Source of the DNA: a virus | Lineage: Duplodnaviria > Heunggongvirae > Uroviricota > Caudoviricetes | Length of the DNA stretch: 33,788 bases | Strand: one strand, 5' to 3' | Virus record (IMG/VR): IMGVR_UViG_3300028374_000006 | In this document: piece by piece, positions 18,188 through 33,788 of the stretch | Layout: each line of letters starts with the position of its first letter | Numbering within the stretch: the stretch's first letter is position 1 | Notes under the pieces: generated by a model | Database searches by the model: none | What the model was told of the DNA's origin: nothing | What the model saw: only the letters and a program-made list of their open reading frames with translations | Made by a program: the position numbers and the translations under genes

Positions 18188-18238
18188 TTGCCTTCAGTGG
18201 TTGATCGCATATCATTTAAGCGATAAGTGAGGTTCGTC

Positions 18239-21200
18239 GTGGCATTTGGACCATTCGATAGTTACGCTCCACCCGGAGTATACACAAAAACACAAACTCA
18301 GCAAGGTTCGTCAGGCCCTCCAACGGGGAACCGGATTCCGGTTCTTATTGGTGTCGGTCGGGAGACTCTATCCCAAGACGACTTTGAGCTGGTGCGTGGT
18401 TCTTCGGCATCGGTAGATCAACGTATTGTCAATGAGGACGTGAACGACAGGTTCATCCTCGACAATGCTAACCCTGATAACCCTGTTTTGGGTGCGAAGA
18501 CTGGCAGTGAAGTCAAGTTTCGTGTCCAGAATTATCCGATTGTATCGGGTAATGGGCAAGGGTTAGTGACGAGTGATACTTCCGATATCACAGTAACCGT
18601 AGATGGCGATCTCGTGTCGCCTGCTGCTGTAGACGGTGCGCGGGGTGTTATCACCTTGCAAGTGCCGCCACAGACCGGTGAAGATGTGCGTGTTACGTAT
18701 TTCTTCAACCGTACCGACACGAAGTTCACCGATGACCTTTCGGGTCAGGTGGCTGAAGAGTCCGCAATCCTCCTTTCGTCGCAAGTCGAAGACTATGAGA
18801 TTCTATCCGGGGCTAACGTCCTGAATCTCAACGTGGACGGTGCAGACGCAAGTGTGACCCTCACGACAGGTGCGACTCAGAGCGCCAACAATGTGGTCAA
18901 CGACATTAACGCTGCGGGCATTGTAGGTCTTACCGCCAGTGTAGCTGCGGACAACGAAGGCAATAACCGAATTCAGTTGGAAGCCCAAGGGTCGATTGAG
19001 ATCCTTTCGGGAACAGCTAACTCGGTTCTTGGTTTTGGTGCTGGTCAAAAAACCACGCGCAACCGTACCTTTTACGTCTATCAGGCTCCGATTGTTACGG
19101 GCGATAACGGCGGGATCATCACGACGGATCCTTCCGATGTTGTGGTCAAGGTAGACGGCAACCAAGTAGTGCCCGAAGAGGTTGATGGAACTAACGGAGC
19201 GGTCACGCTCAAGCAGGCTCCGATTGTAGGGGCCGTCGTTTCCGTTGAGTATTTCCACAACACGTGGCAAGACACTTTCGATTACCTCCCCAATACGGGA
19301 ATTCGGAAAGTCCAACAGGTTGGTATCAGCCCCGGACGCACCGATTATATCGAGGGTAACGATTACGTAGTTGACGAGAACGGTCGACTTCTCTGGGGTT
19401 CGGCGGCAACGATCGAATCTGGCCTGCATACGGCAGGCACGGAGTTTTTCGACGAGACTCAGATCAGTGCATCGCTGGTTGATAACCGGATGTATTTCGA
19501 AGAGACCAGCCGATTTGTAGATCGTTCGGTCAGCCCGGCTGTGACCTCCGACACGACTGTCCTACTAGGTAATGTACCTACGACGGGTAACGGACGGAGC
19601 ACGTCTCTAGACTCGAAGCTCTTTGGCAATGTATCGAACAGCCGGGTAGGCGTGAGCACGCACCGGGCCGATCTTGTTAAAGTATACCACGGAGACAATC
19701 TATCCGAGGCGATGGCTAATGGCCCGGTAGGGGTTGTGGACGTTGATCCTGAAACCCGTAAAGTGACGGTTGAAGATGCTATTCCGCCGAGTCACACGGT
19801 GTGGGCAACGTATTGGTACAACCAGCTTCAGGATGATGAACTAACCTTCGAAGTCTTGAGCCAGTCGACGGCTACGACACCCGGCCAGTATAGCGTTTAC
19901 AGTTCCCGCAGAGGCGAGCAGCTTTTCGGGGTTGATTTCGGTACCACCGGAGTTAACGAAACGATCCAGTGGCCTTCCGGTGTGGAAACTAACCCGGACG
20001 CATTCATTGCGGGCGCTGATGGTGTGGACGAAACCGTGACGGTGACGTTCAAAGAGATCGGGGCCGAGCCTGCTGTATTCACGAATTACGCGGCTGACCC
20101 GTATTCGCTCTATGCGGATGCGTCTGACACCTTGTATGTGGATGTAGACGGTAACAGCCTAACGGTAGACCTTAACCAGTCTGCTTTCGGTGTGACCGTT
20201 TCTGACGGACATGACGATGGTTCGACTTACGACATCGTTGCTACCGAAAACGACGTATTTGAGTTTGAAGTAGACGGTACGGACTATAGCGTCACTCTTA
20301 CAGCAGGGTTGGGCCGAACAGGTGCTGACATTGCCGAAGATATCTGGCGGTCGGTACCGACTGATGCTACTATTACTGGTACATCAACGGAGAGCTTTGC
20401 ATTCACCGATGCGTCCGATGATCTTTTCGATTTTGACATGAACGGTACCCCCGTTAATGTTGATTTTGGAACATTGACAGGTCAAACGGCTGCACAATTA
20501 GCTACGTTGATTAACACCGAGATCACCAACGCAAATCTTACGGTAGGTGATCCGGCAGTTGTTGGCAACGACGGACATGCGGTTGATGATGGTTCGGGTA
20601 AAGTCCAACTCTTGGCTTCTGAAAGCCTTACGATTGGTACAGGCACAGCCAACCCGGTCCTTGGTTTCACCAACGGTGATTCGCATGAGAACATTCTGGT
20701 AGCGAGCTACCGGGATTCGGGTGCTGATGATGAGCGTTTCCTCCTTCGATCGAAAGTGTCTCCTTCGGGACCTGCAGATGCATCCCATATCAGGGTGCAG
20801 GACGGCAACGCTAACGGGACTCTCGGTTTCACTGACTTCCAGTATGCCGAGGGCACCGAGAAAGCTGTTAACAAAGGAGCTACGCTTCTTAGTGGTGCGA
20901 TCTCGGCCTCAGACCTTGCTTCCCTTAATAGCGCTTCTACCGCAGACTTTGTTGTAGCGGTAAATGGCACTGAGCATACGGTGGATCTATCGAGCCTAGC
21001 CTCGGTAAGCGCAATCCAGACCGCTTTGGATGCAGCCCTCACAGATGCCACGGTGGCCGTAGAAGATACGGACAAGATCCGCATCACTTCCAACTTGGAC
21101 ACGAACCAGAGTCGCATTGAGGTTCGTGCCGGAACAGCTAACCAGTACGTTGGATTCAGCGAAGGTGATAGTGCCTCGCAACGACGTGTTGAAGCCCACG

Positions 21201-22792
21201 AGATCGCTGCTGTTCTGAACAGTCAAGCCTCGGATTGGTACAGCCCAACGGCTGCTACCGAGTACATTGCATCGGCCTTTGCTGATACGTTTGTAAAGCC
21301 GGGCGAAGGGACTTACCTCCGCTTGACTACATTCGCGGAAGGTTCCACAGCATCCTTCACGTTTGGTACCGGAACGGATTCGGCACTTAACGATACGGGC
21401 ATTGGGATCGAAGCCGGTGATTCGGTTGCGGGAACAGATGCACGGGATGGGTTCGATGTGGCCTCTTCGGCTACCAACGGCTCAACCGGCGAAGGTGTGG
21501 TTGGTCAAACGTATCAGGATTCCAACACGGGACTTCGGTTCACGATTTTGGAGGCTGGTACCGGCGATTATACGGACGGACAGTCTTTCACACTGAATGT
21601 GTCGGATACTTTCACTACGGGATTCAGCAAAGTCGTCAAGGCCGTTCCGGGCACTGAAGTTCGGGTGGACAACACGACGGATATCGGAGTAGGTGATACG
21701 GCGGTAGTAACGACTTACAACAAGTCAGGTGCCGAGCCGGGAATCGGAGATTTCTACTATATCTCTTACGAATACGAAAAGACGGATTTCTCAACCCGTC
21801 TGTTCACTCGGTTCCGGGACATTCAGCGCAATTACGGCAAGCTGTCCGCTGAGAACCCGCTTACTTTGGCGTCATACCTCGCTGTGTTGAACGGTGCGGT
21901 CATCGTCGGGTGCAAGCAGGTACTAAAGACCCCCGGCTTCAGTCAAGCTCCTACAGCGGCGTTCATGGACGCTTTGGAAGAGCTTAAAAAGCCGCTGGCT
22001 TCGGGCATTACCCCTGATCTTTTGGTCCCTCTTACGACGGACCCGGATGTTATGGGTGCCTATGTTAACCACTCCGAGATCCAGTCGAGCCAGCGTTTCC
22101 GTCAGGAACGCCGGTGCATCTTCGGTGTTGCTTCGGGCACTCGTCCTGAAGACGCGGCTAACATCGCGAAGAGCCTCAAGAGCGGACGGTCGATTCTCGT
22201 ATACCCCGATAGCGCAATCGTCACACTGACGAACGAGCTTGGGGAAGATGAGAGTTTCATCGTCGACGGAACGTATGTAGCGGCGGCACTTGCCGGTGTT
22301 CTGGTAAGTCCGCAGTTCGATGTTGCAACCCCGTTAACACGACGTCGCCTTGTCGGTTTCAGACGCCTTAACCGATCGCTTGATGAGATCGAAAAGAACC
22401 AGCTTGCTGTCGGTGGTGTTACAGTCCTCGAAGATCGAGGATCGTTCCTACAGGTACGTGACGGTCTAACCACCGACGTTACCAACCGGTTCACGTCAAC
22501 GCCTTCGATTGTCGCTATTAAGGATCACGTCCAGCAACAGGCACGCAAGAGCTTGGACCGTTTCATCGGTTTGAAGTTCCTCACCAGCCGGGCGCAGGAT
22601 GTAGAGTTGGCCCTTTCGGGACTACTTAACACCCTTATGGAGCAGCAGATCATTGTAGACTTCAAGGGTGTTCGTGCCGAGCCGGATCCTAACGATCCGA
22701 CCGTACTTCGAGTCAGTGCTTTTTACGCACCGATCTTCCCCTTGAAGTACATCCCGATCACGTACACGATCGGAAGCGCGAACTCACTGTAA
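18239..22792 (+). CDS. Contractile tail sheath protein (about 1517 aa) with multiple inserted domains
   Basis: N-terminal YAPPGVYT. C-terminal sheath domain LAVGGVTVL...VRDGLTTD...FIGLK...PLKYIPITY. GTG 18239 has a GAGGT SD and is preferred over 18227. Confidence 0.88.
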   Translation: MAFGPFDSYAPPGVYTKTQTQQGSSGPPTGNRIPVLIGVGRETLSQDDFELVRGSSASVDQRIVNEDVNDRFILDNANPDNPVLGAKTGSEVKFRVQNYPIVSGNGQGLVTSDTSDITVTVDGDLVSPAAVDGARGVITLQVPPQTGEDVRVTYFFNRTDTKFTDDLSGQVAEESAILLSSQVEDYEILSGANVLNLNVDGADASVTLTTGATQSANNVVNDINAAGIVGLTASVAADNEGNNRIQLEAQGSIEILSGTANSVLGFGAGQKTTRNRTFYVYQAPIVTGDNGGIITTDPSDVVVKVDGNQVVPEEVDGTNGAVTLKQAPIVGAVVSVEYFHNTWQDTFDYLPNTGIRKVQQVGISPGRTDYIEGNDYVVDENGRLLWGSAATIESGLHTAGTEFFDETQISASLVDNRMYFEETSRFVDRSVSPAVTSDTTVLLGNVPTTGNGRSTSLDSKLFGNVSNSRVGVSTHRADLVKVYHGDNLSEAMANGPVGVVDVDPETRKVTVEDAIPPSHTVWATYWYNQLQDDELTFEVLSQSTATTPGQYSVYSSRRGEQLFGVDFGTTGVNETIQWPSGVETNPDAFIAGADGVDETVTVTFKEIGAEPAVFTNYAADPYSLYADASDTLYVDVDGNSLTVDLNQSAFGVTVSDGHDDGSTYDIVATENDVFEFEVDGTDYSVTLTAGLGRTGADIAEDIWRSVPTDATITGTSTESFAFTDASDDLFDFDMNGTPVNVDFGTLTGQTAAQLATLINTEITNANLTVGDPAVVGNDGHAVDDGSGKVQLLASESLTIGTGTANPVLGFTNGDSHENILVASYRDSGADDERFLLRSKVSPSGPADASHIRVQDGNANGTLGFTDFQYAEGTEKAVNKGATLLSGAISASDLASLNSASTADFVVAVNGTEHTVDLSSLASVSAIQTALDAALTDATVAVEDTDKIRITSNLDTNQSRIEVRAGTANQYVGFSEGDSASQRRVEAHEIAAVLNSQASDWYSPTAATEYIASAFADTFVKPGEGTYLRLTTFAEGSTASFTFGTGTDSALNDTGIGIEAGDSVAGTDARDGFDVASSATNGSTGEGVVGQTYQDSNTGLRFTILEAGTGDYTDGQSFTLNVSDTFTTGFSKVVKAVPGTEVRVDNTTDIGVGDTAVVTTYNKSGAEPGIGDFYYISYEYEKTDFSTRLFTRFRDIQRNYGKLSAENPLTLASYLAVLNGAVIVGCKQVLKTPGFSQAPTAAFMDALEELKKPLASGITPDLLVPLTTDPDVMGAYVNHSEIQSSQRFRQERRCIFGVASGTRPEDAANIAKSLKSGRSILVYPDSAIVTLTNELGEDESFIVDGTYVAAALAGVLVSPQFDVATPLTRRRLVGFRRLNRSLDEIEKNQLAVGGVTVLEDRGSFLQVRDGLTTDVTNRFTSTPSIVAIKDHVQQQARKSLDRFIGLKFLTSRAQDVELALSGLLNTLMEQQIIVDFKGVRAEPDPNDPTVLRVSAFYAPIFPLKYIPITYTIGSANSL

Positions 22793-22803
22793 ACGGATGC
22801 AAC

Positions 22804-22821
22804 GGGGGCCATAAGGCCCCC
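22804..22821 (+). terminator. GC-rich hairpin after the sheath gene, possible terminator
   Basis: GGGGGCC-ATAA-GGCCCCC. There is no immediate U-tract. Confidence 0.45.
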
Positions 22822-22859
22822 TCAACTTGTAATTTTTAGACACTAGAAGGTGCCCTGTT

Positions 22860-23669
22860 ATGACTGATCTACGCAAAGCCATCATCAAGCTCGCCTATGA
22901 CAATCCTGAGATCCGAGAGGACCTCGTGCCCCTTCTCCGGGATGCGGGCAACAAAGACACCTTCAAAATCGCAGAATTCCCCCACGAGGGTTACGCTATG
23001 AGACGCACCGAAACGCACAGACGCCGCTTTGCCTTCGACACCTCCGACGCCGAGGACCACTTGGCCGGTTGGAACCAAGGGTACACCGAAAATTACGGCA
23101 GCAGTCAGCACATCCCTGGATTCCTCACCTGGGCTTGGGATCTGAGAAAGGAAACCCTCAAGGATCTTGATCGTAGAAATTACGGGGCCATCGCTGAGGA
23201 GTTGGCGTACAGCGCGAAACAGGATCCCGCCTATCGGGATGAGTCCTATGCGGATCTTGAAGCTGGGTTCGTCGACTATCTCAAAAACTGGCGCACCGAA
23301 CTCCTTGAGGCCCTTGATGAGAGTCTTTTCGACAGGAACGCGTCGAGCCGAAACCGGCAGGCCGACGGATCCACATTCACGTGCCCCCACTGTGAGGGTA
23401 AGGTGCTCGAGCAGACAAAATACTGCGTGAGTTGCCAAAAGAAGGTCAAGAAATCTGCCACACGCAGGCGAGCTCGATTCGAAGAAGGTGTCCCCGCCGA
23501 TCCCACGCAGAACATGACGCCCGAGGAAGCGGCGGAGTGGGAGGCGATGAACGAGAAATACAAGGACAAGCTCAAGAAAGAGCGTGAAAGCGCACTACGC
23601 GATGATCTTATTCGGCTTGCGTACAATAAGCCCGAGCTTCGTGGGGCGCTCCTTCCCATTCTAAAGTAA
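22860..23669 (+). CDS. Modular protein with two class A-like motifs, a zinc ribbon and a short conserved module
   Basis: N-terminal DLRKAIIKLAYDNPEIREDLVPLL and C-terminal LRDDLIRLAYNKPELRGALLPIL. Internal CPHC...CVSC ribbon and FEEGVPADPTQNM module. Confidence 0.85.
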   Translation: MTDLRKAIIKLAYDNPEIREDLVPLLRDAGNKDTFKIAEFPHEGYAMRRTETHRRRFAFDTSDAEDHLAGWNQGYTENYGSSQHIPGFLTWAWDLRKETLKDLDRRNYGAIAEELAYSAKQDPAYRDESYADLEAGFVDYLKNWRTELLEALDESLFDRNASSRNRQADGSTFTCPHCEGKVLEQTKYCVSCQKKVKKSATRRRARFEEGVPADPTQNMTPEEAAEWEAMNEKYKDKLKKERESALRDDLIRLAYNKPELRGALLPILK

Positions 23670-23867
23670 GCTGCGGACACTTTCGAATGCCCGAATTGAG
23701 GCACGAAGGTTCTGGAGCAGACCGGCTATTGCGTCAAGTGCAAGAAGAAGGTCAAAAAGGCTGGCGGCTTGGAAAACTTGCCCCCGGCACTGCGTGAGCA
23801 GGCCTAGAAAAAGCAAGAGGAAGCCAAGAAGAAAAAGGATAAGGACGACGACAAAAAGGACGACTAA
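23670..23867 (+). pseudogene. In-frame continuation of the 22860 gene interrupted by stops (second zinc ribbon plus K/D-rich tail)
   Basis: Same frame gives *AADTFECPN*GTKVLEQTGYCVKCKKKVKKAGGLENLPPALREQA*KKQEEAKKKKDKDDDKKDD*. Stops are TAA 23667, TGA 23697 and TAG 23805, with the final TAA at 23865. Confidence 0.75.
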
Positions 23868-23941
23868 GCCTTCCGCGTGTGATCTCAGTTGCATTACGGA
23901 AGTGTTGGACTGCCTGAATACTGGATGTTGTGTGAATGGAA

Positions 23942-23967
23942 GCCCCCGGAGACGGGGGTTTTCTTTT
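23942..23967 (+). terminator. Rho-independent terminator
   Basis: GCCCCCG-GAGA-CGGGGGT stem with GNRA loop, followed by TTTCTTTT. Confidence 0.85.
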
Positions 23968-24005
23968 GAGATATTTCCCATTACACTTGATCTGAGGTGG
24001 TACCA

Positions 24006-24710
24006 ATGAACATCCTGCTGTTAGGCGACATACACGGACGTTTCGACCAAGCTGACGCCCTTTACGATGTGATCCGTCAAGTTTATAAGGACCGGATTGA
24101 TCTCATGATTCAGTTGGGGGACTTCGGCTTTTTCCCTCGTCTGGACCCCAAAAATAGATGGGAACGTGAGTTCGATCACCCGTGCTGGTTTATCGACGGG
24201 AACCACGACGACCACGAAATGCTCCGTGAACTGGAATCCGACGAACTGGTGTATGGCCAATGGGAGTATATCCCACGGGGAGCTATCCGACAGGGTATTT
24301 TATTCATCGGTGGAGCACGTTCCATCGACGCCGAGCATAGACAGCGGGGCCTTGATTGGTGGCCGGAAGAGAACATATCGTATGCCGAGCAAGAGTATAT
24401 CCTCCAAGCTATTGATACGTATCAAGAACGGGCCAAGACAGACCCGGAGGTGATCCCTATCCACACCGTCATAAGCCACGACTGTCCCGGTGGTATTGAC
24501 GTTTCGGAAGCCTGCGTATATACTGGCAATGATGTGGTGGACGGGAATCGTAAGTTCCTTCAACACGTATTAGATATGGTTCACCCCGAACGTTGGTATT
24601 TCGGCCATTATCATCGCAAGATGAGTGGCACGTACCGAGGATGTGAATGGAGATGTGTTGATATGATCCGCCACGGCGGACCTCACGACTTCGCTTTCCT
24701 CGAAATCTAA
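24006..24710 (+). CDS. Calcineurin-like metallophosphoesterase
   Basis: GDIHG, GDFG, DGNHD, SHDCP and FGHYH motifs. ATG 24006 has a GAGGTGG SD. Confidence 0.9.
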   Translation: MNILLLGDIHGRFDQADALYDVIRQVYKDRIDLMIQLGDFGFFPRLDPKNRWEREFDHPCWFIDGNHDDHEMLRELESDELVYGQWEYIPRGAIRQGILFIGGARSIDAEHRQRGLDWWPEENISYAEQEYILQAIDTYQERAKTDPEVIPIHTVISHDCPGGIDVSEACVYTGNDVVDGNRKFLQHVLDMVHPERWYFGHYHRKMSGTYRGCEWRCVDMIRHGGPHDFAFLEI

Positions 24711-24729
24711 AGTAGAGGTTGTAGGATCA

Positions 24730-25458
24730 ATGGAAGTTAATACCATCCTTTTGTTTATCGGGCTTACGTATCTGATTTACCACCTCCTTTCCTTTTCAGT
24801 GCCCGCCAAAAAACAGCTTGATAACCAAGGCAAGATGCTCGAAGAGATGCGTGAAGCTCGGGTTTCCCAAGTCCTTGGCGACGAGAATTTGGACACGTCT
24901 GAGAAGTTTCTGATGCTTGACGATCACGATGAAGCTATCGAGCTTTTCGAGCGCCTCTTAAACGAAGATGGTGAGGTGATCGAAGAGGACGAAGTGGTCC
25001 TAGATGATGGTGCCCCGGACGAACCCGAGGCTAAAAAGCTCTATTACCTAAAGGACGCCCGTAAGAAGTACGTCGTGAAATGGGCGAACGCTATCATCAA
25101 CAAAACCTATGAGGGGGACGTCGAGTGGGAAACAGGAAACATGGCGCATGTGTCGGCTGATCACGTTGGGATTGGCAATAAGAAGTACGTCCAAGATTAC
25201 TACAAGACGCAGGTCGAATTGGACAGCGGGCATTTTTACATCAAGCTGTTCCGGGTGAAGTGGAGTTATCAAAGTGATTCGGACGTCTCTTTGCGAATTC
25301 TAGGTCCGGGCTATAAAGGTATGTCGGTAGTCGAGATGCTTTCGTATATCGATAAGGAGCTTGCCCAAGAACTGTATCGCATGGCAAAAGATAGCGCTGA
25401 GAACAAGGTAGCAACTAAGACGATGCTTAACGTGGTTGAAGAATTGGAAAAAGTATGA
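24730..25458 (+). CDS. Hypothetical membrane-anchored protein
   Basis: Hydrophobic N-terminus (ILLFIGLTYLIYHLLSF) followed by an acidic soluble region. Confidence 0.7.
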   Translation: MEVNTILLFIGLTYLIYHLLSFSVPAKKQLDNQGKMLEEMREARVSQVLGDENLDTSEKFLMLDDHDEAIELFERLLNEDGEVIEEDEVVLDDGAPDEPEAKKLYYLKDARKKYVVKWANAIINKTYEGDVEWETGNMAHVSADHVGIGNKKYVQDYYKTQVELDSGHFYIKLFRVKWSYQSDSDVSLRILGPGYKGMSVVEMLSYIDKELAQELYRMAKDSAENKVATKTMLNVVEELEKV

Positions 25459-25802
25459 TCGACTTTGAACGCACATTGGATGTGGTCACGTATAATGGGG
25501 CCACTTTGTTACGTTTCGGCTTTGACGCCAACAATCAGGCATGGGCACATTATCTGTCCGAAGAGGGTACCGAATATGACCTGATTCTTTGCGTGGCGGC
25601 CACTGAAGATCAATATCAAGATTTGGTTAACGACCGGCTGCCCCTTCGGGATTTTCTTTTGAATCCGACGTCAGGTAAAGCGTACCGACTGGAGCATTCC
25701 CACGCCGGACATTGGGCCGTGGAAACACTCGAAGCAGATCAGATTACAGAGTCCTTTGAGTGTCTCCCGGAAGCGGGAGTTTATCTAAATCCCAAGACTT
25801 GA
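25455..25802 (+). CDS. Hypothetical phage protein (possibly DUF6575-like)
   Basis: ATGA overlap. The pattern YNGATLL...LPLRDFL...CLPEAGVYL recalls that family; unverified. Confidence 0.6.
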   Translation: MIDFERTLDVVTYNGATLLRFGFDANNQAWAHYLSEEGTEYDLILCVAATEDQYQDLVNDRLPLRDFLLNPTSGKAYRLEHSHAGHWAVETLEADQITESFECLPEAGVYLNPKT

Positions 25803-25827
25803 CATTTAGTTGATCGCCCCCTATAAT
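25799..25827 (+). promoter_or_regulatory. Sigma70-type promoter
   Basis: Exact TTGACA-N17-TATAAT upstream of the 25862 gene. Confidence 0.9.
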
Positions 25828-25861
25828 CACCATTGCTAACGCTTTCGTTTGAATTACTACT

Positions 25862-26746
25862 ATGACGATCACAACCCCTTTGGCACGTCTTCGGAAGCTG
25901 GATTTCGTTTATACGGAACTCCAAAAGGCTTTCCCCGATACCGGTCCACACAATATGATGATCGCGGGCGGTGCGGTAAGGGACATCCTTACCGGTAACG
26001 ACCCGAAGGACATCGACGTATTTATCACCGGGGGTAACAAGCGTGGCGTCTTTGCCCGCCTCATGAAAGACAGTGTGGGGCAATTACTTCGCACCAAAGT
26101 CAGTCAGATCCTATCACATTTCAGCCCGACTCATCACGTATGGTCGGTTGTAGATTCCACGTCGATCACTCGTATCCAAGACAAGGATGCTGTGGTTGTG
26201 TTAGGTGAAGTGGTTGATATCGATGAAGTAGATCGCCGTGACCGGATTGCTAACGGGCATATTGGACCAGACGACCCATTTGATACGACCCTTGATAGGG
26301 GTGGCGTTGCTTTTGGGTATCCCGTCCAGATAATGTGCTACACGCATTGTAGGACGCTGGATGAAATCGTAGCAACATTTGACCTTGACATTTGTATGTA
26401 TGGGTACAATAGAGAGCGATTGATTACAGTGGACAGTTCGCCGCCGCTCGATGTTTTGGACAAAAAGCTCAAGGGCGAGTTGCCCGTTGAAATTTTACAT
26501 ACACACGACCGGATGCGGACGTACTCCCGGCTGAAACGTTTTCATGATAAGTACGGCGTGGATACGACGGAGGCTAAAGCGAAGCTCCGAGACCTGCCGT
26601 TGTCACAGACGGAGGTCGTGTTTGAGTACGATGTGGAAAAGGCGGAGATAAAGCGGCAAAAAGTTGAACCAGCAGTTGAAGTTAGCGATCACGGTCTTAG
26701 TGATCTGTGGGCAAGCCCGCCCGATATATCGGGTTTATTTGGTTAA
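25862..26746 (+). CDS. Divergent class II (CCA/poly(A) polymerase head-like) nucleotidyltransferase
   Basis: MMIAGGAVRDILTGNDPKDIDVFI (motif A). TFDLDIC replaces RRD. No DDxxR template motif. Confidence 0.75.
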   Translation: MTITTPLARLRKLDFVYTELQKAFPDTGPHNMMIAGGAVRDILTGNDPKDIDVFITGGNKRGVFARLMKDSVGQLLRTKVSQILSHFSPTHHVWSVVDSTSITRIQDKDAVVVLGEVVDIDEVDRRDRIANGHIGPDDPFDTTLDRGGVAFGYPVQIMCYTHCRTLDEIVATFDLDICMYGYNRERLITVDSSPPLDVLDKKLKGELPVEILHTHDRMRTYSRLKRFHDKYGVDTTEAKAKLRDLPLSQTEVVFEYDVEKAEIKRQKVEPAVEVSDHGLSDLWASPPDISGLFG

Positions 26747-26760
26747 TTACGGAGGAATTT

Positions 26761-28404
26761 GTGGGACAGAAAAAGACGATTCTATTTGACAACAAAGCGC
26801 TCAATCGTTTGCAAGCGGGCGTAAACACGTTGGCCGATGCGGTAAAGGTAACGCTGGGGCCGCGTGGACGTAACGTTGCGTTGCAAAAGCAGTTCGGTCA
26901 GCCTAACGTCACCAAAGACGGCGTGTCCGTGGCTCGTGAAATCGAAATCGAAGACCGATTCGAGAACATGGGCGCTCAGACGATCAAAGAGGCGGCTATC
27001 CGCACGGCTGAAATGGCAGGTGACGGTACGACGACCGCAACGGTTATCGCACAGGCGCTTTTCAACGAAGCCCGCAAGATGGTGGCTTCAGGACTTTCCC
27101 CGATCCCTCTGAAGCGCGGTATGGACCGGGCCGTAGCCGAGGGTGTGAATTACCTCCGTTACCTCGCCAAAGAGGTCGATAACGTCGAAGAAATCAAATG
27201 GGTTGCTACTATCTCTTCGAACGGCGACGAAGCCCTCGGTGAAATGATCGCCGAAGCGATGGAAAAAGTCGGCAAGGGTGGTGTGATCTCCGTTGAAGAA
27301 GGCAAGTCCACCAACACCGTTCTGGAGTTTTCCGAGGGTATGCAACTGGACCGGGGATACCTGAACCCGGACTTCGCCCGAATGGAAGAAGATGGTGTCG
27401 TGAGCCTAGAGAACCCTCTGGTTCTGTTGGCTGACAAGCGCATTTCATCCGCCCAAGACATCATGAGTGCGATGGAGCACGCGGCATCCCAGCGACGCCC
27501 CTTGTTCGTCGTAGCACATGATGTGGAAGGTGAAGCCCTTGCGATGCTGATTACCAACCACTTGCAGGGTAAGCTCAAGGCATGTGCCGTGAAAGCTCCA
27601 CGCATTGGGGACAAGCGGTCGCAGGTACTCGAAGACCTTGCGGTCCTCACGGGTGGTCAAGTTATTTCCCCGGAAAAGGGAATCACGTTCAAGTCGGTAC
27701 ATCCCGGTGACTATCTGGGTGGTTGCGCCACGGCGTCCGCTGCCAAGCAACACACGACCTTCTTGGGTGGTGACGGCGAAGATGATGCTATTGCACAACG
27801 CATCAAAGTCCTTCGCGGACAGGTCAAACTTTCCGGTAGCCCGCACGATCAGGAATTCACCCAACAGCGTATCAGCCAGCTTGGTGGTGGTATGGCTGTG
27901 ATCCGGGTTGGTGCCAATTCGGAGGTTGAACTCAAGGAGTACAAGGCCCGTGTGGAAGACGCCCTCAGCGCCACGAAAGCCGCTGTGAAAGGTGGTGTGT
28001 GTCCCGGAGGAGGTTGCACATTGATCGAAGTCTCCAACATGCTCAACATCTTGGCGGAGGACGAGGAGACGGTGTTCGTCAACGAGGAAGAGAAAGCTGG
28101 TTGGGTTCTGGTAGCCAAGGCTCTTGAAGCCCCGTTCCAGCAAATCGTGAAAAATGCGGGCCTTTCGCCGGAAGTGCTGTTGCACCAGTACCGCACGGAA
28201 GTCGAAAAGCGTGAGACGCCGGATCTTGTGTTCGATGTGAACGCCGAAGAGATTCGTCCCTGCTTTGAAGCTGGTATCGTTGACCCGGTACTGGTTGTCG
28301 AAGAGGGAATCAAGAACGCGGTGTCGGTATCGTCTCTTTTGATTACGACTTCGTGTGCTATCGGATTCGCTTCGAAGGACAATAAGCCCGACGAAGATGA
28401 ATAA
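26761..28404 (+). CDS. groEL: GroEL-like chaperonin (547 aa)
   Basis: LGPRGRNV, VTKDGVSVA, AGDGTTTA, ARVEDAL and PGGG motifs. GTG 26761 has a GGAGG SD and is preferred over 26707. Confidence 0.95.
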   Translation: MGQKKTILFDNKALNRLQAGVNTLADAVKVTLGPRGRNVALQKQFGQPNVTKDGVSVAREIEIEDRFENMGAQTIKEAAIRTAEMAGDGTTTATVIAQALFNEARKMVASGLSPIPLKRGMDRAVAEGVNYLRYLAKEVDNVEEIKWVATISSNGDEALGEMIAEAMEKVGKGGVISVEEGKSTNTVLEFSEGMQLDRGYLNPDFARMEEDGVVSLENPLVLLADKRISSAQDIMSAMEHAASQRRPLFVVAHDVEGEALAMLITNHLQGKLKACAVKAPRIGDKRSQVLEDLAVLTGGQVISPEKGITFKSVHPGDYLGGCATASAAKQHTTFLGGDGEDDAIAQRIKVLRGQVKLSGSPHDQEFTQQRISQLGGGMAVIRVGANSEVELKEYKARVEDALSATKAAVKGGVCPGGGCTLIEVSNMLNILAEDEETVFVNEEEKAGWVLVAKALEAPFQQIVKNAGLSPEVLLHQYRTEVEKRETPDLVFDVNAEEIRPCFEAGIVDPVLVVEEGIKNAVSVSSLLITTSCAIGFASKDNKPDEDE

Positions 28405-28406
28405 AC

Positions 28407-28435
28407 TTGACGGGTCAGGACGTTTAAGGTATAGG
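28407..28435 (+). promoter_or_regulatory. Probable sigma70-type promoter
   Basis: TTGACG-N17-TATAGG upstream of the HD gene. Confidence 0.5.
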
Positions 28436-28442
28436 TGATACT

Positions 28443-28934
28443 ATGAGTGACTCTATACAGACAGCGCAAGACTTCGCGGCAAAAGCCCATAAAGGGCAGA
28501 TGTATGGAAGTCAGCCCTACACGTACCATTTGGTACAGGTAGCGAATGTCCTGACCCGTTTTGGTTTCGACGACACCGACCTTCACGTGGCCGCATGGCT
28601 TCACGATGTGGTAGAGGATACCGATACCACCGTCGAAGACGTACAAGCCCTTGTGGGCGATGTGGTAGCCGACATCGTGCAACGTGTGACCGATGAGCCG
28701 GGCGCTAACCGTAAGGAACGTAAGGCTAAGACTTACCCCAAGATTAAGGGGGATGTATCGGCCACCCTCATTAAGTTGGCCGATCGAATTGCCAACGTAG
28801 AGAATTGCATAGCCACGGGAAAGCGGGGTCTGTACGGTATGTATTGCAAAGAGCAGCCCGAATTCCGCAAAGCCCTTTTCGTAGACGCCCCTGAGACTGC
28901 CTCGTTGTGGGCGCATCTGGAAGCTATTACGTAA
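28443..28934 (+). CDS. HD-domain hydrolase, RelA/SpoT hydrolase-like (Mesh1/small alarmone hydrolase type)
   Basis: AAKAHKGQ...PYTYHL...AAWLHDVVEDT...IKLADRIAN. Confidence 0.85.
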   Translation: MSDSIQTAQDFAAKAHKGQMYGSQPYTYHLVQVANVLTRFGFDDTDLHVAAWLHDVVEDTDTTVEDVQALVGDVVADIVQRVTDEPGANRKERKAKTYPKIKGDVSATLIKLADRIANVENCIATGKRGLYGMYCKEQPEFRKALFVDAPETASLWAHLEAIT

Positions 28935-28956
28935 CAGGGTTGGTAACACACGTATC

Positions 28957-28987
28957 AAGGTCGCCTTTAGGGGCGGCCTTTTCTTTT
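28957..28987 (+). terminator. Rho-independent terminator
   Basis: AAGGTCGCCT...GGGCGGCCTT stem followed by TTCTTTT. Confidence 0.8.
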
Positions 28988-29014
28988 GACCCCCTCCTTG
29001 GGGTGTGTTATAAC
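28986..29014 (+). promoter_or_regulatory. Sigma70-type promoter with extended -10
   Basis: TTGACC-N17-TGnTATAAC. Confidence 0.75.
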
Positions 29015-29020
29015 CGCCAA

Positions 29021-29190
29021 GCCTATAACATGTGGCGATGCACAGCCACGGCGGTTTGGGGAAGGGAATGCGGGACCATTTCAACGCCTGAAGGTGTTGC
29101 CCTACACACTTACAGGGAAACGAGATGGTGAGCAGACTGAATCCAGCCGATGGGACATGAGGGCAGGGGAACAACGGGTTCAACCGCCTA
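29021..29190 (+). ncRNA. Candidate structured RNA or long 5' leader (unclassified)
   Basis: Follows a strong promoter, has no convincing ORF and contains several nested stems identified by eye. Confidence 0.3.
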
Positions 29191-29317
29191 TATTAAAGGT
29201 TGGATCCGTAGGGGTTGTCCTATAATGCCCGTCACACTGGCGCGGATATTCTTTGAGCAGGTAAGCGTTCGAAGAGTACTTCCGCGATAGGTTATGATTT
29301 TCCAAGAGGGTAGGAAA

Positions 29318-30022
29318 ATGCTCCCCGTCTATTTCATACGTGATGTCCATTATGGTGGTGATGTTAGCAACGGCTATAGCGGTCAAGCATGGCTTCGCGA
29401 ACACGCACCGGGCAAATACGTTTTGGATTTTTTGCCCATGAGCGGTAAACCGGCGCTGTACAATTCCGTATGCTTCACAGACCCGGATGATGCAGCCGCT
29501 GCAGTGATCTCGGCTTCAAAGCAAGACCTTTATGGCTTGGATGCAGAGCGTGAGTTGACGACTAAAAAACCACGCCCGGAGCTACAGGTCGTGAAAATAC
29601 CTTGTTCTGTATACCCAATGCAGTGTGATGTGGCAGGTACGTTCCCTTCGACTTCCTCAGCGTTCATTCACGCCGACAAGGGGCCGTTTACTTACTACGC
29701 CTTGCGGGAAACCACCTTAGAGTCTTACTTTTACCGGTGTAACCTGAGAGGGGTGCTTTTGCAGCCCTTAGATAAGGCCACGCTTTTCACCACACATAAG
29801 AAAGCGGCCAACCAGCTTTCCCGGTTGCTCAAATGGAACTCCGAGGTACGGGTATCTTCGGATGAACTTGAACTTGTACGAGCAAAGGACCTCCGGTGGC
29901 GGGTCGAAAAGCGCCACGGTTTTCTGGTCGAAAAAGCCAACTCCCGCATGACCAAACTCTTCGGTCAGGGTGATTGGCGGCAAACACCTTTCATGGTAGT
30001 TCCCCACCTTGAGAGTTTCTGA
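29318..30022 (+). CDS. Hypothetical protein
   Basis: ATG 29318 follows a purine-rich SD (GAGGGTAGG); alternative ATG at 29294. No motif recognised. Confidence 0.7.
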   Translation: MLPVYFIRDVHYGGDVSNGYSGQAWLREHAPGKYVLDFLPMSGKPALYNSVCFTDPDDAAAAVISASKQDLYGLDAERELTTKKPRPELQVVKIPCSVYPMQCDVAGTFPSTSSAFIHADKGPFTYYALRETTLESYFYRCNLRGVLLQPLDKATLFTTHKKAANQLSRLLKWNSEVRVSSDELELVRAKDLRWRVEKRHGFLVEKANSRMTKLFGQGDWRQTPFMVVPHLESF

Positions 30023-30196
30023 GGATCCCGGTTTCTTCAACAAAATTAGGTACTTACCGATAGCTGTCCTCAAATGAGGACGGCTAAGTGTGTTGAATGT
30101 CTAAAGTTTTTGACGAATTGCTCGTTTTAGGGTATATGTTAATGCGAGGGTGGTATGTCCTTCGCATAAATTATCCTGAGACTCAAGGAATCATAA

Positions 30197-32176
30197 ATGC
30201 GACACTACACGACATTAGCCTTACTTGTTCTGGTCTTGACGGCCTTTGGTTGTACCGAAGAGGTTCCGACCTATCCCGTAACCACGGACACCGTAACCAG
30301 CCCTGATGCTGGTACGGACACTTACACTGAAGAAGTTCGGGTGGACAGCGACACGGGAATTGTTCCTGATACGGACAGTGGCACCGATCAGGAAACCGGT
30401 TTGGATACGGGTGAAGATGCGGGTTCGGATACCGATACCGGAGAGCAAGACATCGGTACAGATTCGGGTACGGACACGGACACCGACACCGGCATGGATG
30501 CGGAGGACACCAGTACCGATACGGGAGACGATGGTGGTGATACGGGAGACGAGGTAGAAACGGACACCCCTGAGATTGATTGTGATCCGGGGTACGAGGT
30601 GGTCAATGGTGCGTGCGCCAATATCGACGAGTGCAACGACCCCAATGTTTGTGGTCCCAACGCAACTTGTGCCGATACCGAAGGCGATTACGACTGTACC
30701 TGTGACGCGGGCTATGCGGATGTGGCTGGTACCTGTGAGGATGTGAACGAATGCGACGACCCCAACGTTTGTGGAAACGGTACCGAATGCAACAACACGC
30801 TGGGCGGATATGAGTGTTTGAACGTGGATGAGTGTGTTGACGGTACGGATTCCTGCAGCGCTGGAACCGAATGTATAGACGGTGATCCTCTTAATGGGGA
30901 ACAGGCTTTCACTTGCGCCAACGTGGATGAGTGCAGCAACGGGTCCGCCAATTGCCAAACGGGAACCACCTGCCAAGATCTCGACCCTAACACAGACAAC
31001 GATACTTACGCTTGCGTAGATAACAACGAGTGCGCCAACGGCACAGCGGTTTGCGATTCAAACGCAACATGCACAAACACTTACGGATCATTTTCATGTG
31101 CTTGCGATAGCGGCTTCACAGGCGACGGGTTCAGTTGCCGGGAGCTAAACGTTTGCGGCGACGGTATCGTGGATTCGGCAGAGGTTTGTGACGAGGGTGC
31201 GAGCACGGGCGACGTATGTGTCCCCGGATATGGACAGACTTGCACTTGGTGTGATTCGTGTACCCAAGTGGTGACGGAAACCGGGGCGACTTGCGGTAAC
31301 GGCAACCTCGACGTTAATGAAGGCGAAGAATGTGATGGAGGGCCGGGTTGTACGGCATCCTGTGCTGTTGCTACTGGATACACGTGCATCGGGGGTGCCC
31401 CGTGCCTGAATCCCTGTGAACAGTACGTGGGGGATTTCACAGCAAACACAAACTCAGACTTGATTACCCTTTCCGGGTATTGTTCGGTAGACGGTAATGT
31501 AACCATCACCGGAACCGCTACCCAACTGTTTGAAGTCCACACGTTGCGCGAGATTCTGGGGACTTTTCGTCTGGACCTCAACAATAGCACGGGAAATAAG
31601 GCACGTTTTGAATACGTCAATAACGAAGTGGCTTTTGCGGATTTGGAAACCGTCACGAGTAATTTTGAAATGGATAATTTCGTGGTCACGGATCTCGTCA
31701 CTAACCAAGGCGATGCTGTTGATTTTGTGGGCTTTCCCTCTTTGACCACTATTGGTGGTGACATGTTTATCCGCGATGGGGCCAAAGAGGCTAACACCAC
31801 TAACCCCTTGACAATGGATGCTTTCAACGCACTCCTTACGGTTGGTGGGGATTTACAAATCATTTTTACGGATTTTTACACGGTGTCTGGTTTTCAGTCC
31901 GTCACGTCCGTGGGTGGCGTAATGTATATTCAACAAAACCCGGATCTTGTTTCGTTGGGCGGAGCGTTTTCCAGTTCATTGACGGTGCAGGGTGCGAATG
32001 CCGCCAGTCAGTACATTATTGATATCCAAGGGAACCACCCCGATCTGGTAGATTACCAGAATGGACAATACCAAGGAGATGGCTGTGGTGTGTGTGATAA
32101 AGCCCAAGAGAATTCGTACCAGCATTGCCCTAGCCACGATACCAACGCTCCAGTGACTTGCCGCGTAAAATCCTAG
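30197..32176 (+). CDS. Lipoprotein with calcium-binding EGF-like repeats, myxobacterial Cys-rich (DUF4215-like) repeats and C-terminal receptor-L-domain-like repeats
   Basis: Signal peptide with lipobox AFG-C19 and a D/T/G-rich linker. Five N-I/V-D/N-E-C-type repeats. CGDGIVDSAEVCDEG and CGNGNLDVNEGEECDGG. Repeats FPSLTTIGG, FNALLTVGG and FQSVTSVGG. Confidence 0.85.
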   Translation: MRHYTTLALLVLVLTAFGCTEEVPTYPVTTDTVTSPDAGTDTYTEEVRVDSDTGIVPDTDSGTDQETGLDTGEDAGSDTDTGEQDIGTDSGTDTDTDTGMDAEDTSTDTGDDGGDTGDEVETDTPEIDCDPGYEVVNGACANIDECNDPNVCGPNATCADTEGDYDCTCDAGYADVAGTCEDVNECDDPNVCGNGTECNNTLGGYECLNVDECVDGTDSCSAGTECIDGDPLNGEQAFTCANVDECSNGSANCQTGTTCQDLDPNTDNDTYACVDNNECANGTAVCDSNATCTNTYGSFSCACDSGFTGDGFSCRELNVCGDGIVDSAEVCDEGASTGDVCVPGYGQTCTWCDSCTQVVTETGATCGNGNLDVNEGEECDGGPGCTASCAVATGYTCIGGAPCLNPCEQYVGDFTANTNSDLITLSGYCSVDGNVTITGTATQLFEVHTLREILGTFRLDLNNSTGNKARFEYVNNEVAFADLETVTSNFEMDNFVVTDLVTNQGDAVDFVGFPSLTTIGGDMFIRDGAKEANTTNPLTMDAFNALLTVGGDLQIIFTDFYTVSGFQSVTSVGGVMYIQQNPDLVSLGGAFSSSLTVQGANAASQYIIDIQGNHPDLVDYQNGQYQGDGCGVCDKAQENSYQHCPSHDTNAPVTCRVKS

Positions 32177-32231
32177 GCCGGGCCTAGCTCAACCCAAAAA
32201 GCTCTTATACGGTCTGTATAGTGGAGGCCGT

Positions 32232-33086
32232 ATGAGAGCTTTAGTTTTATCAGGAGGTGCCGCCCACGGTGCTTTTCAGGCCGGGGCGATTCAGGCCCTC
32301 TACGAAATAGGGTGGATACCCGAGATCATTTGCGGATCATCGGTGGGGGCCATCAATGCCGCTGGTCTAGCTTCGGGTAAATCACCGGAGCACCTGTGTG
32401 AACTCTGGCGCAAGGTTACGAGTCGGGATGTGTACCGGTGGCGTCCCCCTAACCAATGGCTGAAGTTCTGGAAATGGAGCCATGTCCTCGATACCACACC
32501 TCTTTCGAAACTCCTCAACAAATACGTAGATTTCGACGAACTTCAGCACTCACCGCAAACCGTTACGTGTTTCAGTGTGGACGTCCGTACTGGACACCTT
32601 CAGGGCTACGCTAACAGGGTAACAGGGTTGCCCCCGAAGTTCCGTCGCCTTTACCGTCCAGACTTGCTTGACGTGGATGCTGTGATGTCCTCGACAGCAA
32701 TCCCTTTGGTGTTTCCGTGGTCCCGTGGCGAATGGGATGGATCTCTGTTACAGTATGCTCCGTTGAAACCGGCTGTCTTGTTAGGGGCCACCGAGATCGT
32801 GGTAGTATCTCTCGAAATTCATGAGCCGGAACCCGCGTTGCCTACGGGAGTGGTACAGACGGCTCTTCGCATCCTCGATATTAGTTCTATGTCAAGGTTA
32901 CGTAGTGATCTCCGAACGCTCCTTGCGAGGAACAACCAAGACGGGTACAGGAATATAGACGTGCGGGTGATCCGCCCTTTACGGAACCTTGGGTACTCCA
33001 AGCTGAATTTCAATTCCCCGTTGAAAGAGGCGGCCATCGCACACGGACGTAATTGCGCTCACCAGATCATGAGTCAAGATGTTTGA
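32232..33086 (+). CDS. Patatin-like phospholipase
   Basis: ALVLSGGAAHGAFQAG (glycine-rich), GSSVG (GxSxG nucleophile) and WDGSL (catalytic Asp). GGAGG SD. Confidence 0.9.
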   Translation: MRALVLSGGAAHGAFQAGAIQALYEIGWIPEIICGSSVGAINAAGLASGKSPEHLCELWRKVTSRDVYRWRPPNQWLKFWKWSHVLDTTPLSKLLNKYVDFDELQHSPQTVTCFSVDVRTGHLQGYANRVTGLPPKFRRLYRPDLLDVDAVMSSTAIPLVFPWSRGEWDGSLLQYAPLKPAVLLGATEIVVVSLEIHEPEPALPTGVVQTALRILDISSMSRLRSDLRTLLARNNQDGYRNIDVRVIRPLRNLGYSKLNFNSPLKEAAIAHGRNCAHQIMSQDV

Positions 33087-33393
33087 ATTCGACAACGACG
33101 GACCGCGTTATTACATACGGTTGGAACAGAAGACCGATTACCTAAACCTTCTGTACGTGCCGCACGCCGACTTTGATACCGCGCAGGCCAACCAATCACT
33201 AATGCTTCTATTTCGGCAGTATGCCGATCCCTGCGGTACGATAGCCTATTTCGATCCCCACGAGTATTGCATCATTTCGAGCCGGGCCAAGGAATACAAG
33301 GGGTTGCGCGTTTATTTGTACGACGATCAGGCTCCTTACGACGGTTATTATTTGGACGGACGGTTTATTGAAGCACTGGAGGAAGTTCCATGA
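33079..33393 (+). CDS. Hypothetical protein
   Basis: 104-aa ORF overlapping both neighbours. Confidence 0.7.
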   Translation: MFEFDNDGPRYYIRLEQKTDYLNLLYVPHADFDTAQANQSLMLLFRQYADPCGTIAYFDPHEYCIISSRAKEYKGLRVYLYDDQAPYDGYYLDGRFIEALEEVP

Positions 33394-33764
33394 GCGTTTT
33401 CAAATGGTCGATCAATCACAAGGCCCGTATGGCCGATGTGCAACAGTTAATCGAAACCTTCGGCTTTAAGCCGACAGGGGACAAGGACCACATGTACGCC
33501 CACAAGATTAGCGCGGGGACGTACTGGCGGGAGATGAAAGTTAGGCTACGCCCGGAAGAGGCGGTTTTCTTCTTGCTCAAAGAGGAGGAGTCGACCACTG
33601 AAACTTACTTTGACTATCTAGTGAAAGCGAGTTTCTTGATGGGGCAATTGGCCGGAAAGATTGAGCTTTTGCCCGTCAAAGAGGAAGGGGTGGAGTTACC
33701 CGAAGCCGACTATGACGATGAGGACGACGATGACGAGGAGCTAGCGCAAGGGGAGACGTCTTGA
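33390..33764 (+). CDS. Hypothetical protein with acidic C-terminus
   Basis: ATGA overlap and GGAGG SD. Ends DDEDDDDEE. Confidence 0.7.
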   Translation: MSVFKWSINHKARMADVQQLIETFGFKPTGDKDHMYAHKISAGTYWREMKVRLRPEEAVFFLLKEEESTTETYFDYLVKASFLMGQLAGKIELLPVKEEGVELPEADYDDEDDDDEELAQGETS

Positions 33765-33788
33765 TGATACGTATCGAAAGGTGTAAGG

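Follow-up and report, generated by a model that had tools for sequence, protein, structure and literature searches.

Probable recent silencing of a terminal zinc-ribbon module by nonsense mutations in a modular gene of a lake phage

Introduction

Programmed read-through and codon reassignment are well established in phages, as in the A1 protein of Q-beta and in TAG- or TGA-recoded phages, where an in-frame stop codon is followed by sequence that looks coding; the stops in such systems are conserved, of one kind, and accompanied by suppressor tRNAs or by many recoded genes. Natural nonsense-inactivated accessory genes, like the amber, ochre and opal mutants of phages, carry a single-base change from a sense codon to a stop codon that yields a truncated product, and an intact allele is available for comparison. 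Phages also escape defence by mutating the gene that is sensed, and selection then favours losing or changing a phage protein that is not essential (bioRxiv 10.1101/2022.08.27.505566; PMC12184496). Generic C4 zinc ribbons, represented in Pfam by DZR (PF12773), Zn_Ribbon_1 (PF13240) and HVO_2753_ZBP (PF07754), share a CxxC...CxxC pattern within about 27 residues.

Here we analyse a 33,788-nt stretch of DNA (the window; IMG/VR record IMGVR_UViG_3300028374_000006) that forms part of the ~230-kb genome of an uncultivated phage of lake origin. An initial annotation had noted that the reading frame of the gene starting at 22860 appears to continue through three different stop codons, and had offered recent pseudogenisation, consensus errors of the oxidative-damage type and programmed read-through as explanations. 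Our data point to the first of these: we put the probability at about 0.85 that 23667-23867 is the last module of a modular phage gene and was recently silenced by nonsense mutations.

Results

Over 22232-33788, the portion that a 230,823-nt ENA contig (L019; ERZ27315384 k141_231862) overlaps, the window and that contig are 100% identical. The plus strand carries every gene in the window, not counting a minus-strand ORF at 23981-23661 that is discussed below. Gene 22860 lies between a sheath-like gene (18227-22792, 1521 aa) upstream and a metallophosphoesterase gene downstream that starts at 23997. On the plus strand, 3' of the sheath-like gene, the hairpin GGGGGCCATAAGGCCCCC (22806..22823) marks, by alignment and identity profile, the left boundary of a block that is ~100% identical between two phage lineages otherwise only ~70% identical. 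Few gaps in the window are as large as the 327 nt between the ORF at 22860..23669 (plus strand) and the gene that follows it. This gap contains a terminator-like plus-strand hairpin, CCCCCG-GAGA-CGGGGG followed by the T-run TTTTCTTTT (23943..23967), which was read by eye; a simple terminator scan did not list it, and Rfam gave weak terminator-type matches at 23916-23967. Elsewhere in the window, the gene pairs 12737-13108/13115-15388 and 3912-4364/4368-4646 share a frame and are split only by TAA plus one or two codons; frame sharing is expected by chance for about one in three adjacent gene pairs.

The ORF at 22860..23669 encodes a 269-aa product, an identical copy of which (P0052) is found on the 230,823-nt contig, and it reads as an assembly of short portable modules. 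Module A is a helix motif, L(I/V)RLAYxxPELRxxLLPLL; module B is a C4 zinc ribbon, TFxCPxCGTKVLEQTxYCVKCKKKVKK; module C is FEEGxPADPTxNM..EEAxxW...KYKDK; and the "central" cassette comprises about 135 aa. The ORF consists of A1, the central cassette, the ribbon B1 (23373..23453, plus strand, TFTCPHC...CVSCQKKVKK), C2 and the helix module A2 (ALRDDLIRLAYNKPELRGALLPILK, 23592..23666, plus strand), and then ends at a TAA; in relatives, E-A-A-D-T-F and a ribbon come directly after A2. The leader-like helix motif, in the form LIxLG/AxxxP(E/D)LRxHxxPxL, is found at the N-termini of several small proteins of the virion gene cluster (genes 4041, 7272 and 12737 of the window) and occurs twice in gene 22860, at 22860 and 23592. 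The central cassette (22965-23378, ~135 aa) splits a ribbon (GNKDTF|K...STF|TCPHC); the cassette-free form GNKDTFKCPECGSKVLE is present in the relatives P0057 and P0004 and in a loose end of run X5, and the cassette is tandemly duplicated in L002 and lies between two C modules in P0103. C modules of the form FEEGKPADPTxNMSPEDAxxW...FK occur in two to five copies in hundreds of large proteins of 500-1600 aa (P0104-P0245), and Pfam found an informative domain in none of seven such proteins (P0104-P0106, P0108, P0112, P0113, P0124).

Past 23669 the frame runs on without a frameshift, as had been noticed at the outset, through nine codons (AADTFECPN), a TGA at 23697..23699, 35 codons, a TAG at 23805..23807 and 19 codons to a TAA at 23865-23867, so that the whole window allele has the order A1-central-B1-C2-A2-TAA-B2(TGA)-tail(TAG). 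The extension was also said to duplicate the upstream ribbon with many synonymous differences, and the alignment of B1 with the second ribbon, B2 (23679..23759, plus strand), agrees: 54 of 81 nucleotides and 19 of 27 residues are identical, and 17 of the 27 nucleotide differences fall at third codon positions. The C4 pattern CxxC...CxxC is complete in B1 and in B2 of the intact allele described below, whereas in the window the second Cys of B2 is replaced by TGA. The last stretch (23808..23867, plus strand) is the remnant of a charged Lys/Glu/Asp tail together with the original stop codon, which intact alleles still use; its end, ...DKDDDKKDD, is the C-terminus of the proteins P0055, P0102 and P0103.

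Family comparison indicates what B2 should look like. The consensus ...LLPLLKEAADTFKCPxCGTKVLEQTGYCVKCKKKVKKA is found in unrelated metagenomic proteins in which A is fused to B, and it places the TAA of the window at the usual Glu position and the TGA at the invariant second Cys. Since TFECP and CPNCG each occur in intact natural copies, B2 is canonical apart from its TGA, which is the sole defect in this copy. Among 29 ribbons on 25 other viral contigs none contains an in-frame stop, and these ribbons differ from B2 mainly at third codon positions. Across phages the module is under strong constraint at the protein level. A search with the intact protein against 1.84 billion representatives returned 737 clusters at E <= 1e-3, and the zinc ribbon is found in hundreds of unrelated phage proteins.

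The module TF[KPE]CPxCGTKVLEQTxYCVKCKKKVKK is conserved far more strongly than the generic Pfam ribbon families, and in contrast to members of those families the single ribbon of this gene falls below all cut-offs: P0055 and the window ORF are under every Pfam threshold, and a relative with three ribbons (P0006) is above those of DZR and Zn_Ribbon_1. Pfam, PHROGs, a PDB sequence search and the ESM Atlas gave nothing beyond weak generic zinc-ribbon matches. In an AlphaFold model of intact P0055 the chain forms a pair of helices, a small beta ribbon and a tail that is also helical; at a mean pLDDT of 63.7 the model is too uncertain for a fold search. Phage GenBank records yielded no DNA match and a protein match of 37 residues only, and exact-pattern scans of IMG/VR, in which the stop sites of the extension were written as N, gave zero matches. 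Protease cleavage at the K-E-A junction was considered and dropped, as relatives differ in the linker that joins helix A to the ribbon (KEA, TAA, VSAS).

Intact alleles of the same locus exist in near-identical phages of the same lakes. When Logan contigs of four lake metagenome runs were compared with window positions 22800-24000, a 1011-nt contig of run X4 (depth 5.7) differed from the window at only five sites over 23384-24000, and three of these (23667 T>G, 23699 A>C and 23805 T>G) give GAA, TGC and GAG. Four further contigs, L015 (ENA ERZ27315599), L016 (JGI 3300028372), L017 (ENA ERZ27315540) and L018 (JGI 3300038658), carry the intact gene in the same slot as in the window, between the sheath-like gene and the metallophosphoesterase gene. 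Their flanking genes are 99.8% identical to those of the window, the sheath-like gene included, indicating that intact and stop alleles belong to the same phage species. Protein searches recovered the corresponding products, namely P0055 and P0102 (135 aa, free-standing C-A2-B2-tail with their own ribosome-binding site) and P0103 (324 aa, long architecture). Every intact allele seen has a 5' end of the MSKDSK type and every stop allele seen one of the A1 type. In the sheath-like gene (18227-22792) the window differs from L015-L018 by 10 SNPs, nine of them nonsynonymous (e.g. G>D, G>E, D>N, R>L, Q>K) and one synonymous, a pattern that looks like diversifying selection on the protein.

Comparison with these alleles shows that the ancestral gene reached 23867 and that A2 led in it to a further predicted C4 zinc ribbon (B2) and then to a tail rich in Lys, Glu and Asp. 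It also shows, at the level of codons, three G:C>T:A transversions in the window allele: G>T at 23667, where L015-L018 and X4 have G, turned GAA (Glu) into TAA (23667..23669); C>A at 23699 turned TGC, the second Cys of a CxxC, into TGA; and G>T at 23805 turned GAG (Glu) into TAG (all on the plus strand). The initial annotation had placed the TGA at exactly this cysteine and had proposed that each stop lies one G>T or C>A change from the expected codon; the intact alleles read GAA, TGC and GAG at exactly those three sites, and in related phages the sense codons for Glu, Cys and Glu appear in the family consensus as well as in the intact alleles. In a haplotype table of eight contigs covering 23575-24420, the only variable sites are 23630, 23667, 23699 and 23805, and in the 3' block the intact orthologous alleles differ from the window only at the three stop sites, as recent pseudogenisation would have it.

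We found the three-stop haplotype in the window, to which L019 is identical, in L005 (ERZ27315374), L006 (ERZ27315599), L002 (JGI 3300028372) and L052 (JGI 3300039190, 81,972 nt), and in runs X3 (depth about 50) and X6. No fewer than five assemblies and two more runs, drawn from several samples, thus contain it, a contig count that exceeds the number of truly independent samples if some ENA and JGI assemblies are re-assemblies of the same reads, which would still leave several samples. Contig breaks beside 23667 (X5) and 23806 (X6) lie at a depth of 2-4 and are uninformative. L002, L006, L052 and run X3 carry two additional changes, G>T at 23409, which converts GAG to TAG within B1 so that the product ends ...CEGKVL, and G>T at 23630 (Lys>Asn). 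Neither the eight-contig haplotype table nor searches for the products revealed haplotypes or products with one or two of the three stops.

The stop allele has reached two phage backgrounds and is seen with its modules in several arrangements. In a second lineage that carries it (G001, the IMG/VR contig of L001; also L006), the upstream structural genes are 65-74% identical to those of the window, and the sequence is nearly identical from the hairpin at 22806 onward. L052, a distinct contig of the sample that gave G001, has the four-stop allele too and is 99.8% identical to the window up to 25544. Beyond 25544 identity between L052 and the window falls, which marks another mosaic joint, and downstream of the shared block L052 has a 152-aa gene (2243-2701) in place of the 115-aa gene at 25455-25802 of the window. 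Module arrangements seen with the stop allele include an extra C-A insert and a duplicated central cassette (P0053, P0002).

On the stop lineages five changes are derived (23409, 23630, 23667, 23699 and 23805), each of them G:C>T:A and four of them nonsense, and we found no shared sequence context around the five mutated G:C pairs. Of all possible substitutions in the stretch, 5.4-5.8% create stops, a share that rises to 10.5-11.8% among G>T and C>A changes. The case was chosen from a very large scan owing to its several stops. The chance that each of the three differences from the intact allele is a stop is about 1.6e-4 under uniform mutation and about 1.6e-3 if only G:C>T:A changes occur; for stops at four of the five derived changes it is about 4e-5 and about 9e-4, respectively, and for stops at both of the changes that lie downstream of the first stop about 3e-3 and about 1e-2. 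If the change at 23630 and the two downstream stops are taken as three neutral G:C>T:A changes, two of three are stops (p about 0.03), which is unremarkable for a case picked in this way.

Discussion

Our data are most consistent with recent nonsense inactivation of the last module of gene 22860. Under the standard code, translation of the window allele would stop at 23669 and give a protein of 269 aa with neither B2 nor the tail, and the next 198 nt would be untranslated RNA, continuing as far as the terminator-like hairpin near 23943-23967; from the position of this hairpin, the dead extension of the stop allele would sit in the 3' untranslated part of the transcript. The ribbon-plus-tail would be dispensable or costly in this architecture, for which reason the first mutation was presumably tolerated or favoured; every stop allele seen has an A1-type 5' end. 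The event is probably recent, since the dead part has picked up no further substitutions. Nor would the stop allele have been a dead end, as it appears to have spread further and then to have acquired a fourth stop, inside B1, in one sub-lineage. Purely neutral decay fits poorly, as about ten other changes are expected per stop and none is seen in the 3' block. What is unusual is that three different stops, with no other change, are perfectly linked, occur across phage backgrounds and coexist with intact alleles; compared with other natural or laboratory nonsense mutants, this locus has three different linked stops packed into 139 nt, in two backgrounds, and a later fourth stop.

Nested within this reading is a version in which each nonsense change was favoured while the stretch in question was still translated, proceeding from 3' to 5'. 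In the proposed order, the TAG at 23805 would have cut off the charged tail, the TGA at 23699 would have disrupted the ribbon and the TAA at 23667 would have removed the remaining stub, and the TAG at 23409 would then have truncated B1 in one sub-lineage. Possible drivers are a host defence for which the conserved ribbon or tail serves as the cue, or a harmful effect of the module when it is joined to an A1-type leader. The proportion of nonsense changes among the five, improbable even when only G:C>T:A changes are allowed, speaks for such selection, as does the fact that the youngest and still polymorphic stop (23409) is the most upstream. The module content of the slot varies widely, and the nine nonsynonymous SNPs to one synonymous SNP in the sheath-like gene separate the same near-identical genomes, from which it follows that neutral divergence is almost nil and that selected changes seem dominant. 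Escape from defence by nonsense mutation is documented, in four of 66 escape mutants, 60 of the 66 being single missense mutants (PMC12184496), and frameshift escapers from bacterial defence are documented as well (bioRxiv 10.1101/2022.08.27.505566). However, laboratory escape is mostly by single missense changes, and the driver proposed here is hypothetical. In addition, a single upstream stop would suffice, no intermediate haplotype was found, and the p of about 0.03 for three neutral changes carries little weight in a case picked for its several stops. The excess of stops therefore hints at selection for silencing, and a G>T bias combined with the way in which the case was picked could also produce it. 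We hold stepwise selection as a tentative reading, at well below even odds. Its broader form is comparably doubtful: the conserved ribbon-plus-tail may work against the phage in certain hosts, for instance by triggering a defence system, and may have been repeatedly silenced with its 3' end first, giving a balanced on/off polymorphism with intact alleles in the same lakes.

If the stops were instead read through, by low-frequency decoding or by a suppressor tRNA, gene 22860 would yield a ladder of 269-, 279-, 315- and 335-aa products, as the initial annotation had allowed. The frame is kept, the ribbon sequence is otherwise perfect and the phage has tRNA genes of its own, all of which would suit such a mechanism. 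Near-identical alleles with sense codons at the three sites indicate, however, that the stops are derived and are not conserved signals; unlike the recoding stops of known phages, they are also of three kinds, which would require three separate suppression events, and are limited to the tail of one gene. We detected no tRNA gene in the window, and the six on a co-lineage contig (L023, 15337-21387) are ordinary and include no suppressor: Arg(tct), Thr(cgt), His(gtg), Thr(tgt), Leu(caa) and Leu(taa). Under code 11 the window's other 37 genes have normal ends, TAG serving as the stop of two of the 38, and neither Rfam nor folding indicated an RNA family or unusual structure at the stops. We consider read-through very unlikely.

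Decoding of the UGA as selenocysteine, which the initial annotation had rightly set aside, was rejected: the TAA lies nine codons upstream of the TGA, and no ATG, GTG or TTG start codon lies between the two. The small hairpin GGTTCTG-GAG-CAGACC that had been compared with a bacterial SECIS is indeed present, at 23708-23723, 8 nt after the TGA, but the likeness to a SECIS does not hold, as the minimum-energy fold does not use it, shuffled sequences fold just as well as the region after the TGA (z = -0.08) and Rfam returned nothing relevant. The palindrome results from the codons of the conserved peptide KVLEQT.

Less probable still is that the region encodes the hydrophobic 106-aa minus-strand ORF (23981-23661) in place of the sense frame. 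The frame is open, contains a Leu/Phe-rich stretch and was called as a gene in L005 and L052. Yet it is the mirror of a Lys/Glu-rich sense frame that fits a conserved protein family residue by residue, its frame is likewise open in intact alleles, all other genes are on the plus strand, and it overlaps the plus-strand terminator; it is evidently a shadow ORF. The least probable explanation of all, and one that the data contradict, is an assembly or sequencing artefact such as oxidative G>T damage in the consensus, for although every change is of the G:C>T:A type typical of 8-oxoguanine, the haplotype is common to assemblies of JGI, ENA and Logan that come from several samples, with contigs as deep as about 50, stop and intact alleles were assembled side by side from the same samples, and the remainder of the window is free of such errors.

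Together, these results settle what had looked like a puzzling coding extension, whose ancestral sequence was recovered from wild intact alleles and did not have to be guessed. They also carry a warning for annotation, in that gene callers put a spurious antisense gene on the dead stretch. The window allele is probably a natural knock-out, a known kind of event, in an uncharacterised, very widespread zinc-ribbon module, and together with the intact alleles it provides a clean natural on/off pair for that module. If the excess of stops does reflect selection, comparison of intact and stop alleles could reveal the role of the module and the host factor that opposes it.
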